Part shown: positions 43,476-47,504 of the stretch, one piece after another
Layout: each line of letters starts with the position of its first letter
How positions within the stretch are numbered: position 1 is the first letter of the stretch
Origin: an uncultured delta proteobacterium
Lineage (GTDB): Bacteria; Desulfobacterota; Binatia; Binatales; Binataceae
DNA length: 64,000 nt
Direction: 5' to 3'
NCBI GenBank assembly: GCA_963794325.1
Contig: CAWCDG010000005.1
Coordinates: forward strand, 32,001-96,000
Position numbers and translations under genes: made by a program
The notes under the pieces: model-generated
Seen by the model: only the letters and a program-made list of their open reading frames with translations
Database searches by the model: none
Told to the model about the DNA's origin: nothing

Positions 43476-44111
43476 ATGGCCAACAACAACGACAACCCAA
43501 GGAGCAAACTGAACTTCACCGACTCAAATTTTTCCGATGAGATCCTGAAACTCGCTCAGTGCCTGATGCCCGAGCCACCCACCACCAAAGTGAAGCGGCT
43601 CGTCGCAACCATCGCCGACAAGGGAATCGATCGCCAGCTTCATGAACTCGGCTGGAAGGCATACGATACCGTGGTCGGCGTTGCCAACAATGCAACCAAT
43701 CGCGTCTTCACCAGTCCGACCGTAGGCAACCTGCTCGGCGGTGCAGTCGATATCATGCTCCGATACCAGCGCTTCAATATGGCCGTCGCCGGCGCATTCT
43801 TCTCGGCGCTGTGGCCGGCCGTCGGTCTGCCTTCCGCAAGCGAAGTCGAGTCGCTCCGCGTTGACGTGCGTGCGATGCGCGAGGATCTGCGCGACGCCGT
43901 CGCCGATCGCGACACCAAAGACGACTTCGCCAGTGACCTGCACCGCGCGATCCGCGAGTCGATCATTAGCCCGCGAACAGTCGACCAGGCTGCCGCCCTC
44001 GAATCGATCGGCCACAAGCACGCCGAGAGGTCCGGCGTGTACCAGTTCTCGGTATGGTCCGGATGGCCCAGCGCAGACCCGATGGAGCACGGGGAAGATG
44101 TCGGCAATTAA
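43476..44111 (+). CDS. PhaE-like PHA synthase partner subunit (divergent)
   Basis: VGLPSASEVESLRVDVRAMREDL resembles the PhaE C-terminal LPTR.E motif; overlaps the phaC start. Confidence 0.5.
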   Translation: MANNNDNPRSKLNFTDSNFSDEILKLAQCLMPEPPTTKVKRLVATIADKGIDRQLHELGWKAYDTVVGVANNATNRVFTSPTVGNLLGGAVDIMLRYQRFNMAVAGAFFSALWPAVGLPSASEVESLRVDVRAMREDLRDAVADRDTKDDFASDLHRAIRESIISPRTVDQAAALESIGHKHAERSGVYQFSVWSGWPSADPMEHGEDVGN

Positions 44112-45162
44112 CGAAATCGCTTCGCTCTGGATGGAAGGCACGATGCGCACGCTCGACGCGTTCCGCACCGGCTTCGGCGCCACGATGGACGATCCGCCGC
44201 CCGCGACGCGATCGCGCGTCATCTATGAGTCCGGCCTCGTGCGGCTGCGCCACTACCGCGCCCTCGGCGAAAACCCCAAGCGCGTGCCGCTGCTGCTCAT
44301 CTACTCCCTGATCAAACGCCCCTTTATCCTCGACCTGCAGCCCGGCCGCAGCGTCGTCGAGTATCTCGTCAAACAAGGCTTCGACGTTTACCTGATCGAC
44401 TGGATTCCACCGCGGGCCGACGACAAGGGCCACGGCTTCGACGAGTACGTCAACGTCGACATCGCCAACGCCGTCCGCGCCATCCAGATTTACACCGGCA
44501 TCCAGCAGATCTCGATCCTCGGCTACTGCTTCGGCGCGCTGCTCGGCCTGATGTACAGCGCGCTGCACAGCGGCAACGTCAAGAATCTCGTCACCTTGAC
44601 CATCCCGCTCGACACCAGCCCGCGCCAGTTGCCCATCGAGCATCTGACGGCCGCGATGTCCTCGCGCAGCGCCAAGATGATCGTCGATATGTACGGCAAC
44701 GCGCCGGCCTGGATGATCTACTCGTTCTTCAACACCCTCGCGCCGACCCATCACATGCTCGACAAGTTCGTCGGCGCATATCGCAGCTCGGCGCGGCCCG
44801 GCTACCTCGACACCTTCAAGCTGTTCGAGCGATGGCTCCATAGCGACGTGCCGATGGCCGGTCGAATCTTCCTCGAGACCTCCGAGATGTGGCGCGAGAA
44901 TTCGCTGGTCAAGGGCACGATGAAAGTCGGCGCATCGATCGCGGACCTCGCCGGCATCAAGATGCCGTTGTTGAACGTCATCGGCGACCGCGACGACATC
45001 GTCAATCCCGCATCGAGCGAGCCGCTCCCCGATTTGGTATCGAGCGACGACAAACAGAATCTGCACTACCCAACGGGCCACATGGGCGCGGCGATCAGCG
45101 CCGACTCGCTCAAGCGTCTATGGCCCCAAATCGCCAATTGGCTGAGTGCCCGCGATGAGTGA
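44098..45162 (+). CDS. phaC: class III-type poly(hydroxyalkanoate) synthase
   Basis: RPFILDLQPGRS, DVYLIDW, lipase box GYCFG (Cys), Asp in GDRDDIV and His in TGHMG; about 354 aa. Confidence 0.85.
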   Translation: MSAINEIASLWMEGTMRTLDAFRTGFGATMDDPPPATRSRVIYESGLVRLRHYRALGENPKRVPLLLIYSLIKRPFILDLQPGRSVVEYLVKQGFDVYLIDWIPPRADDKGHGFDEYVNVDIANAVRAIQIYTGIQQISILGYCFGALLGLMYSALHSGNVKNLVTLTIPLDTSPRQLPIEHLTAAMSSRSAKMIVDMYGNAPAWMIYSFFNTLAPTHHMLDKFVGAYRSSARPGYLDTFKLFERWLHSDVPMAGRIFLETSEMWRENSLVKGTMKVGASIADLAGIKMPLLNVIGDRDDIVNPASSEPLPDLVSSDDKQNLHYPTGHMGAAISADSLKRLWPQIANWLSARDE

Positions 45163-45349
45163 AGAAACCAAAACACCAGGCTCAACGCACAAGCGGCAAA
45201 AGAAACGGACCGACAAAGGTCCCAAAGGAAACGTAGCGTCCCAGAAGATCGCTGACGCCGTCGGCGCGGCAGCGAAAACAATTTCGATCCACAACGTTAG
45301 CAAAACAAACGGCGGGCACGAGCCGCGCCGGCCATCAGGAGAAAAAGGA

Positions 45350-45610
45350 ATGTCAGAGCACAAAGGGAACGGTTCCGTGTTAGAGGGTCTTACCAGCAAC
45401 CTGAACATCGAGGGCGCCAAGAAGTTCGCCGCGTGGTATATCGACACCAGCGAGAAAGTCGCCAAGCAGGCAATCGACTTCCAGGCGCAGGCGACCAAGT
45501 GGGCGAAAGAAACCCCGCTCGCTCCAATTTTCGACGCACAGCTCGAATACGGCAAAAAGTTTGTCGAGCGCTCGGCCAGCGCCGCCCGCAGCCTCTGGCG
45601 CATCGAATAA
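45350..45610 (+). CDS. small phasin-like helical protein (start could be 45155)
   Basis: Amphipathic helical sequence directly after phaC; AGGAGAAAAAGG upstream of the ATG at 45350. Confidence 0.5.
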   Translation: MSEHKGNGSVLEGLTSNLNIEGAKKFAAWYIDTSEKVAKQAIDFQAQATKWAKETPLAPIFDAQLEYGKKFVERSASAARSLWRIE

Positions 45611-45634
45611 TCTTTTCAGTATTAAGGCCGCGCT

Positions 45635-45668
45635 CCGTTGTCGCGCGCGGAATCGCGCGCGACAACGG
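45635..45668. terminator. strong hairpin after the pha operon
   Basis: ccgttgtcgcgcgcg-gaat-cgcgcgcgacaacgg perfect inverted repeat; no clear U-tract. Confidence 0.6.
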
Positions 45669-45707
45669 TTGGCGCCCTCCTCTGAGAGTCGTTAGATTCT
45701 TCAGAGC

Positions 45708-46973
45708 ATGGCTTCAGAACTCGCATCAGCCAACTCAGCCAACGCGCATGAGATCTCCCGCGACGAGCTCCGCGCCCGCCTGCGTGATCCCTCGCTGACC
45801 ATCCTCGATGTACTGCCCCAGGCCTCGTTCGTCGAGGCCCACATACCCCGCGCCATCAACATTCCGCTCGAGCAGATTCCCACTCAGGCGCGCGAGATAC
45901 TCCCCGACCTCGATGCTGACATCGCGGTTTACTGCGGCAAATTCACCTGAACTCGCGCCCAGGAGGCGGTCGCCTCTTTGCGTGAGCTTGGTTACTCGAA
46001 GGTCCGCGAATATCGCGGCGGCCTCGAGGACTGGATCGAGGCAGACGGACCAACCGAGCGCGTGAACGACGAAGTCTCGGAGCCGAAACCTGACGCCACG
46101 CCCGAGATTGCCGGCCCTCCGCTGAGCGCTTCGCCCGACGGCGCCGTCGGCCGCGGCCCTGCGCGCCTCTCCCGGATGCGCCGGCTCGACAAGTCGGTTC
46201 TCGACCTCGTCCAGCAACGCTCCACTTTGCAGCTGTTCACAATCTGGCTCGCAATGATCCTGCTGACCGGCCTCGCCTACTGGCTTGGCGCGATGCTCGG
46301 CGAGCACGGCCTCGTCGAACAGAGGCGACCCGTCCAGGCCGACCTCAGCGGATTCGCAAGTGCGCTATATTTCAGTTTCGTCACCGCAACTTCCATCGGT
46401 TATGGCGACATCGTGCCGGTCGGCGTTGCGCGCGTGGTCGCTGTAGCGGAGGCGATTGCCGGACTGCTGATCTTCGGCGCGGTCGTCGCCAAGTTCGTCT
46501 CGCATCGACAGGAAGAGTTAGTGAGCGAAATTCACCGCGTCACCTTCGAAGAACGGCTCGACCGCATCGAGACCAATCTGCATATGGTTGTTTCGGAACT
46601 GCTCGCGGTCACTGCGATGGTCGAAGCGAAGGCGCCGCTGAATCGAGTCACCACCCGGCTCGAGAGCGCCGTCATCCTTTTTGTGAGCGAATTGCGCACC
46701 ACCCGCGACCTGCTCTACCAGCCGCGCCTGATGGTCGAGGAAGGCGTGCTGGCCGGGATTCTTGCCACCCTCGCGTCGGCCATGAACGTGCTGGCCGAAC
46801 TGCTCGCGCTACTGCCGGATGAATTCTCGCGCTCGCAGGGATTAACCATTACCCTCGATCGTGTCACTGGTCTGGCCGAGGAGGTTTGCGGCGATTGCGT
46901 CCCCCACTCCTACACCCCAAGGCTCGTATTCTGGATGGACCGAATCCAGGCCACCGCCAAACGAATCAGATAA
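45708..46973 (+). CDS. predicted selenoprotein: rhodanese domain (Sec at codon 81, TGA 45948-45950) fused to a 2-TM GYG potassium-channel pore
   Basis: In-frame read-through gives YCGKFT-U-TRAQEAVASLRELGYSKVREYRGGLEDW, completing the rhodanese fold; downstream ALYFSFVTATSIGYGDIVP pore; SECIS-like hairpin right after the TGA. Confidence 0.8.
45952..45986 (+). promoter_or_regulatory. bacterial SECIS-like stem-loop
   Basis: Lower stem ctcgcgc/gcgtgag, upper stem aggaggc/gcctctt, apical loop GGTC separated from the TGA by 17 nt. Confidence 0.75.
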
Positions 46974-47149
46974 TCCCAGTGGGGCGGGCCGCCGTGCCCG
47001 CAATTGACTTGAGAGTGGCGCGGCAAGAATACCTCGCCCGTTACTTCACGGGAGAGGAGGCCGGCCGCAACGCGGCCGGTAGGTGAGGGTTCCGCGATTC
47101 AATATGTAAGCGCGCCGCGACGCTGCCCTTTTTTTCTTGTCTTTCCCTC

Positions 47150-47435
47150 CTTGTGTCATTCAGAGCGAAAGTTGCTGTAGCGAAGAATCCCGAATCTGAG
47201 CGACCGGGATGATCGGTAACACTTTAGACCGGCATGATCGGTAACACTTTATCGGGGTTTGGCGGGGAGGAGCGCGAGGGGGGAGGCCGACGCTTCCAGC
47301 GTCGGGTGGGGGACTACATTTCCGGATTCCGAATATGCGGCGCCACAGACAATCGCGCCGCAATTGTCCCCCACCCTAACCCTCCCCCCACGAACGGGGG
47401 AGGGAATCAGATCGCTTAGCTCTGAATGACACAAG
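47150..47435. mobile_element. nested non-autonomous elements: GTCATTC-type REP/MITE with 17-bp perfect IRs enclosing an IS481-like terminal remnant and another hairpin repeat
   Basis: IR cttgtgtcattcagagc / gctctgaatgacacaag; internal 25-bp tandem gaccgg(g/c)atgatcggtaacacttta; the - strand translation ends KVLPIIPV as in IS481-type transposase tails. Confidence 0.55.
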
Positions 47436-47504
47436 AACTGAATGACACTGGAAAAAGAACCTGAGAGCAAAAGGGCGTCCTCGCCATTTTGCGATTAGTA
47501 CTAA

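Follow-up and report, generated by a model that had tools for sequence, protein, structure and literature searches.

At positions 45708-46973 on the forward strand of the window, by which we mean the whole 64,000-nucleotide stretch of contig CAWCDG010000005.1 from an uncultured delta proteobacterium of the Binataceae, two open reading frames (ORFs) follow one another with a single TGA codon between them. Are these two genes, or one gene in which the TGA is read as selenocysteine (Sec)? A first-pass annotation, made from the letters of the sequence without database searches, had favoured the latter and had proposed a rhodanese that contains Sec and is fused to a potassium channel. Our analysis indicates that the ORFs are very probably one gene, not two, encoding a single predicted selenoprotein of 421 residues in which the TGA is decoded as Sec. 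We hold it highly probable that this is a genuine selenoprotein with a new architecture, a Sec-containing rhodanese sensor joined to a K+ channel. At least 63 species-level genomes of a single family of soil bacteria share the predicted architecture, which is systematically mis-annotated there as two genes.

The interrupted frame and its homologs

The two ORFs, 45708-45950 (80 amino acids, starting with ATG) and 45978-46973 (331 amino acids, starting with TTG), share one common frame, and the sole stop between them is the TGA at 45948-45950 on the plus strand, five residues past Cys76. Reading through this codon (the proposed Sec, U81) gives 421 codons, the in-frame TGA included, up to the stop TAA at 46971-46973, and the peptide that the first-pass annotation had quoted (…AVYCGKFT-U-TRAQEAVASLRELGYSKVREYRGGLEDW…, with TATSIGYGD and CGDC downstream) is recovered. 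The ATG start (M-A-S-E…) is kept in orthologs, which are conserved in frame on both sides of the TGA. The suggestion that the TGA cuts a rhodanese domain in two also held, as the Pfam rhodanese profile (PF00581) matches the read-through protein at residues 18-111 (45759-46040, plus strand, spanning the TGA) over profile positions 2-101 of 102, with 60.4 bits against a gathering score of 22.2, whereas it matches the 80-residue piece over positions 2-69 only, with 39.5 bits and a third of the profile missing. Rhodaneses of the PDB match the domain with E-values down to 4e-15.

Orthologous loci of the family show a Sec/Cys pair of alternatives at this position, in agreement with the proposal that Sec takes the place of a second Cys: at exactly this codon, 63 of 71 loci have TGA, seven have TGC and one has TGT. 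The TGA forms come from 13 genera, have 45-84% protein identity to the window, and present the codon in the context Y-C-[AG]-x-[FYAD]-T-TGA; the seven TGC forms read YCGxL[TS]-C-[DE][RL]S. The single TGT form (L061, at G050:C12:5654-7051 in a 63%-complete genome) has a Sec-type context, YCAKFT-C-ERS, followed by a frame break; it may reflect decay of the copy or a fault of assembly. The gene was found in 73 of 165 species genomes of the family (E<=1e-40) and is absent at E<=1e-30 from 400 other genomes sampled across the phylum. Unpublished genomes enter this tally (G024), that of 152 of 165 given below for selA (G024, G117, G173, G178, G179 and G180) and a further one of 41 of 41 (G019 and G024), while none of the 71 loci followed in detail is from an unpublished genome. 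One relative has a second, fragmentary copy at G007:C1:173283-174012, apparently what is left of a pseudogene, in two pieces of 54-57% identity; both a TGA and a TAG occur in the second piece.

Protein databases give the same picture in another form. Among the best 120 matches, 58 are at least 380 residues long and 55 of these have Cys at the site; the other three are P0028, with Trp, P0032, with Cys but no preceding Tyr, and P0009, a false pattern match on an N-terminal extension. The metagenomic full-length homolog P0028 has Trp in a Sec-type context (YCGKFT-W-QLGEQ); its codon may have mutated to TGG, or the gene caller of its source may have translated a TGA under another code. Close Cys-form homologs carry the source names Candidatus Binataceae or Candidatus Binatus. 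The remaining 62 of the 120, all shorter than 380 residues, are listed with the channel family alone and no Rhodanese, because gene callers halt at the TGA of the TGA form, just as had been foreseen; since standard annotation splits the gene in this way, the family is invisible in current catalogues. The same artefact appears in the 50%-representative library, searched exhaustively, in which many matches start at query residue 85-100.

Fusion of the rhodanese to the channel, a test that had been set for relatives, is kept in the family forms of all 71 loci, in the full-length database homologs and in distant YC-x4-C fusions. We read 13 distant full-length or near full-length fusions (P0122 to P0185; 35-46% identity over the matched parts) and found [YH]C-x4-C in 11, Gly at the site in one and Ser in one. 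Given those 11, C-x4-C is the family norm, with Sec predicted in place of its second Cys in the lineage studied here. From 67 of the 71 rows we built a quick maximum-likelihood tree (IQ-TREE), having dropped L029, L061, L087 and L088 as shorter than 380 residues. In it the seven Cys forms make up one clade (Shimodaira-Hasegawa-like approximate likelihood ratio test, SH-aLRT, 95) nested among Sec forms, so that one switch between Sec and Cys is enough; the root, placed by midpoint only, puts Sec as ancestral and does not fix the direction of the switch.

Proposed decoding of the UGA

The source genome (4.45 Mb in 10 contigs, 85% complete) holds all four of selA, selB, selC and selD, the search for which had been put forward as a check. 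The tRNA-Sec scores 72.4 bits and is called tRNA-SeC with anticodon TCA by ARAGORN, and the three protein genes all exceed their cut-offs (selA, 570 bits against 268; selB, 375 against 242; selD, 377 against 125). By its gene content, the organism is able to decode UGA as Sec. TGA has not been reassigned throughout the genome, since it is the commonest stop among long ORFs (1575 of 3126 in the source genome). The selD gene, which adjoins selB at G000:C4:1158546-1161572 outside the window, encodes a selenoprotein in its own right: its one in-frame TGA lies at the classical CKAAG-U-AGKLGP site. Across the family, 152 of 165 genomes have selA over the cut-off, among them 61 of the 63 that carry the TGA form. 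The two exceptions, in genomes 64% and 84% complete, both have a tRNA-Sec (72.4 and 69.9 bits); G021 has in addition a full selB, and in G133 selB matches only in part, below the cut-off. Nine genus-level relatives (82-98% complete) without selA are also without the channel gene.

A stand-alone rhodanese paralog in the same genome (G000:C2:458823-459134, minus strand) has an in-frame TGA at the same loop position, in the context VVAYCRDSL-U-DLSARAAAQLE, that is, C-x4-U followed by x-x-S. Similar rhodanese matches with a single TGA occur in many relatives, and it is therefore probable that this bacterial family has several rhodanese selenoproteins.

The UGA is followed by a hairpin that resembles a selenocysteine insertion sequence (SECIS) at 45952-45986 on the plus strand, with a lower stem (45952-45958/45980-45986), an upper stem of 7 base pairs (45961-45967/45972-45978) and the loop GGUC (45968-45971), 17 nucleotides separating UGA and loop. 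Across the 63 TGA forms, compared without gaps and counted from the U of the UGA, the G at +22 never varies and the U at +23 is kept in at least 90%; in the fdhF SECIS of Escherichia coli the loop spacing is G23/U24. Pairing in the helix named above holds in 80.4% of cells and drops to 28-47% once the 3' partners are slid by 1-3 columns. Its covariation score was reached by none of 500 shuffles, with changes on both sides in four of eight pairs, although the test draws on related sequences and on a structure derived from those same sequences. The discriminating feature of the hairpin is its position. When the criteria for bacterial SECIS elements (bSECIS; PMC13188914, Fig. 2 legend: loop of 3-9 nucleotides, stem of at least 4 base pairs, G in the first two loop positions, spacing of 16-37 nucleotides, minimum free energy <= -7.5) are applied at a spacing of 16-18 nucleotides, hairpins are found in 61 of 63 TGA forms and in none of the eight Cys-codon forms, with a background of 56 of 600 random in-frame sites and 25 of 400 real TGA stops (6-9%). 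The TGAs of selD and of the stand-alone rhodanese paralog serve as internal positive controls; each of them likewise precedes a GC hairpin whose G-rich loop lies at +21 to +26.

Two explanations would do without a selenoprotein altogether. One is an error of assembly or sequencing that turned TGC or TGT into TGA; it has no supporting point that we could find and is effectively refuted. The codon is covered by contigs of four soil-metagenome runs from one study, which possibly includes the source sample, and none is listed as differing at 45948-45950: three of them (X1, 45662-46801; X2, 45673-46122; X3, 45846-46193) have 0 other letters, and X4 (45939-46089) has one, which is not listed at the TGA codon. 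TGA at the same codon in 62 other genomes counters an error better than these contigs do. The other explanation, that translation ends at the TGA to leave an 80-residue rhodanese fragment and a separate channel begun at TTG 45978, or that the gene is split and decaying, is what gene callers report under the standard code, and we judge it very improbable. A decaying gene is unlikely because the TGA is fixed at one codon, in 63 genomes of 13 genera, while flanks diverged down to 45% identity keep the frame. Nor is a channel made only from TTG 45978 borne out, as the distance from the TGA to the first ATG, GTG or TTG downstream ranges from 1 to 79 codons across the 63 TGA forms, and the commonest position, a TTG at codon 9, is found in 18 of the 63, so that there is no conserved restart. 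Termination is further opposed by the lack of a third of the rhodanese profile in the 80-residue piece, by the orthologous Cys forms, which are single proteins, and by the full Sec machinery of the genome.

Several results nevertheless weigh on the side of a stop and against Sec, besides the dependence of the helix test on its own input. The 63 TGA sequences are kin, so that counts over them overstate independence. With perfect stems only, the generic bSECIS criteria pass 36 of the 63 TGA forms (and none of the eight Cys-codon forms), against 141 of 2000 random in-frame sites and 66 of 831 real TGA stops; when bulges are allowed they pass 63 of 63, yet also 357 of 600 random sites and 174 of 400 real TGA stops. 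In this GC-rich DNA, where 60% of random sites pass, such criteria mean little alone and are nearly uninformative; the version with bulges was for that reason rejected as a discriminator and the positional version kept. The folding energy of the window hairpin is unremarkable (z -1.0, with 32 of 200 shuffles folding as well), and synonymous-codon shuffles gave a mean z of -0.79 with only 3 of 63 forms at or below 0.05, a weak outcome after which energy was dropped as support for a SECIS. A search of 45000-47500 against Rfam at E<=10 gave no match, no RNA run is listed as carrying the locus, and both the incorporation of selenium and the expression of the protein are predictions from sequence.

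Anatomy of the predicted protein and its nearest relatives

The first-pass annotation had described a CxxxxU loop. The C-x4-U spacing stands, and the roles of its two ends can now be refined. Cys76 (codon TGC, 45933-45935, plus strand) corresponds to the first Cys in the active-site loop of rhodaneses, the catalytic one in that family, and does not vary among 55 aligned sequences. HMMER alignments place C76 on the loop Cys of the solved structures 6mxv (YCGSG--FRS) and 3tp9 (YCR--TGGRS), and T80-U81 in an insertion of two residues relative to solved rhodaneses, so that the loop is longer than the canonical six residues (C-x5, ending in R/S or T). Because C76 occupies the canonical position and T80-U81 the insertion, Sec is, on this alignment, not the canonical catalytic residue and would act as a second nucleophile five residues on, in the enlarged loop C76-G-K-F-T-U81.

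Beyond the rhodanese domain, all on the plus strand, comes a Pro/Ala/Gly-rich linker of variable length (46041-46220), which ends in a conserved basic stretch, GRGPARLSRMRRLDKSVLDLV, just before the first predicted transmembrane helix (TM1; 46221-46301, residues 172-198). In 54 of 55 homologs the best 19-mer of TM1 reaches a Kyte-Doolittle (KD) value of at least 1.6, and the second helix, TM2 or inner helix (46410-46502, residues 235-265), is at threshold in 55 of 55. Between them lies the K+ selectivity filter T-S-I-G-Y-G-D (46389-46409, residues 228-234), which aligns with the filter of KcsA and has G231, G233 and D234 invariant. Ion_trans_2 (PF07885) matches residues 214-264 with 51.4 bits against a gathering score of 22.5, and the inward-rectifier family IRK (PF01007), at 20.6 bits, falls under its gathering score of 22.7. 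These matches, together with KcsA as the best match in the PDB, bear out the KcsA-like pore with TATSIGYGD that had been described.

The C-terminal domain (46503-46970, plus strand; about 156 residues) is probably helical and belongs to no known family, with no Pfam, NCBIfam or PDB sequence match. A third transmembrane helix at residues 347-370 was considered and rejected, as this hydrophobic segment is amphipathic in distant homologs, has up to six charges in homologs and is at the transmembrane threshold in only 26 of 55; with this segment amphipathic and no third helix conserved, the tail, like the N-terminal domain, is most likely cytoplasmic. The tail includes an invariant CxxC, C394-G-D-C397 (46887-46898, plus strand), within I-C-x-x-C-V-P…W-M-D-R. 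The protein has four Cys/Sec residues in all, C76, U81, C394 and C397, of which the three Cys never vary and position 81 is kept in at least 90% of the 55 sequences, which reach down to 35% identity.

The nearest precedents are TsoB in idea, KcsA for the pore and YgaP for a membrane-anchored rhodanese. KcsA, the pH-gated channel of Streptomyces lividans, is the best solved-structure match for residues 150-421 (E 1.6e-7). The two align over pore helix, filter (TATSIGYGD here, TATTVGYGD in KcsA) and inner helix, and both run from TM1 through pore and TM2 to a cytoplasmic helical tail, which in KcsA is a four-helix bundle. KcsA differs in having no rhodanese, Sec or conserved CxxC tail, and the 156-residue tail of our query matches no solved structure. 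Other K+ systems in which a cytoplasmic domain reads small-molecule or redox state and controls K+ flux are KefC, which responds to glutathione adducts, Kv-beta, an NADPH oxidoreductase, and MthK and other RCK channels; their sensor folds are different ones, and none is known to use rhodanese or to contain Sec. In YgaP of E. coli a cytosolic rhodanese domain is likewise joined to a transmembrane domain, but the protein is described as a dimer with neither K+ selectivity filter nor Sec.

Among selenoproteins, a 2026 review of prokaryotic selenoproteomes distinguishes five rhodanese-like forms (UxxS, UxxG, CxU or NF041203, UxxG, and UxxxxU, which is TsoB or NF045694) and gives only a handful of Sec-containing transport proteins, as predictions. 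TsoB joins a rhodanese to a membrane protein and has Sec at the +5 position of the loop, as in C-x4-U here, but it has two Sec (UxxxxU), a DsbD-like membrane part and no K+ pore. Forms 1-4 have Sec in or beside the active-site loop, as here, but are soluble single-domain proteins; the motif of NF041203 is C-x-U rather than C-x4-U, and form 1 (UxxS) can be set beside the stand-alone paralog of our genome (C-x4-U-x-x-S) by motif description alone. No curated NCBIfam model reaches its cut-off for the query protein, which scores 27.9 bits with the TsoB model NF045694 (cut-off 805) and 33.9 bits with the rhodanese_LYCAU model NF041203 (cut-off 115).

The first-pass annotation knew of no described K+ channel with Sec, and our literature search, whose scope left out supplementary tables and Haft and Tolstoy 2025, likewise found no K+ channel that contains Sec or is fused to a rhodanese. 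The word 'channel' has 0 occurrences in the main text of the 2026 review, and likewise in a 2022 review and the deep-Sep paper, and term look-ups in PMC13188914, PMC9312934, PMC1088965, PMC12013277 and PMC7539508 returned no Sec or rhodanese K+ channel.

A possible gate on the pore, and the surroundings of the gene

Taken as a whole, a 421-residue Sec rhodanese with a K+ pore, decoded by SelB and tRNA-Sec, is the explanation that we strongly favour. In it, SelB and tRNA-Sec would read the UGA at 45948-45950 as Sec under the direction of the adjoining hairpin. Two-helix K+ channels have both termini in the cytoplasm, and the rhodanese domain would be held there by its flexible linker, beneath a KcsA-like two-helix pore that is presumably a tetramer. 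Rhodanese loops hold a persulfide on Cys, and compared with Cys, Sec is both the stronger nucleophile and the better leaving group. The C76/U81 pair could thus be oxidised to a selenenylsulfide, bear sulfane sulfur or selenium, or act as a soft-metal ligand, and its state might be exchanged with C394-x-x-C397 of the tail. A change of state would then bias the inner-helix gate and couple K+ flux to thiol-redox or reactive-sulfur status. From established knowledge we infer such a redox or sulfane-sulfur gate, which the first-pass annotation had also proposed, only tentatively. That this is the first ion channel with Sec, its gate set by the state of Cys76-Sec81, whether selenenylsulfide, persulfide, selenopersulfide or a bound soft metal, and relayed to or reset by the CxxC of the tail, is a conceivable outcome that we would put somewhat short of an even chance.

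We counted in favour of a sensor that the protein has exactly four Cys/Sec residues, with three invariant and position 81 so highly conserved. These same groups, C-x4-U and C-x2-C, would also suit a site for a soft metal or metalloid (such as Hg, Cu, Cd or As) that gates the channel in a real selenoprotein. We regard this as unlikely, given that no metal-resistance genes flank the gene and that Sec stands beside the canonical Cys in the loop of a sulfur-transfer fold, which suggests sulfur or selenium chemistry; neither point is decisive. More improbable still is a real selenoprotein in which the rhodanese is just a working sulfurtransferase anchored to the membrane and the pore is independent of it. 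Such an arrangement has a precedent in YgaP, a membrane-anchored rhodanese with a cytosolic catalytic domain, and the long, variable linker could mean loose coupling; against it, the fusion, the filter and both Cys motifs are kept together down to 35-46% identity, and an invariant CxxC in the channel tail is hard to explain without cross-talk. A gate worked by the rhodanese has its own difficulties. Of 150 homologs with a rhodanese domain or remnant, 149 carry the CxxC, which we also counted in favour of a sensor, but among homologs without a detectable rhodanese 28 have it and 22 do not, and as fragments and frameshifts confound this class the co-occurrence is a hint only. The neighbouring genes point to no sulfur or selenium pathway.

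To our knowledge, nearly all selenoproteins are soluble redox enzymes. If the present prediction is right, a K+ channel with Sec in its regulatory domain would extend selenium biology to ion channels, and rhodanese would join the short list of cytoplasmic sensor folds on K+ pores. Should the proposed gating also be true, the status of reactive sulfur, selenium or oxidants would bear directly on membrane potential and K+ content in this widespread family from soil. Both versions of the protein, Sec and Cys, occur naturally, in 63 and 8 species-level genomes respectively and in many more within metagenomes, so that nature has already supplied the U-to-C comparison by which the benefit of Sec in a sensor might be judged.

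The genes around the channel gene encode a PhaC-like hydrolase, a product of 154 residues without known family, a GntR/aminotransferase regulator, a pyridoxamine-oxidase-like protein and a GNAT protein, and no functional link to the channel gene was found in this neighbourhood. The first two, the PhaC-like alpha/beta hydrolase (473 residues) and the overlapping 154-residue ORF, lie upstream at 43741-45610 of the window and accompany the channel gene in 18 of 30 related loci; the downstream regulator does so in 4 of 30. Between the upstream ORF and the channel gene, at 45620-45670, lies a near-perfect GC-rich palindrome, CCGTTGTCGCGCGCG-GAAT-CGCGCGCGACAACGG. A 60-nucleotide query around it has 22 matches in its own genome, the top listed ones sharing a core of 39 nucleotides, and in metagenome contigs it shows 15-270x depth and many loose ends. 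It looks like an intergenic repeat of the repetitive extragenic palindromic (REP) kind and may double as a terminator. Just downstream of the channel gene, at 47027-47096, is a second repeated intergenic element, with 37 blastn matches in its own genome and a depth of up to about 1150 in run X1.

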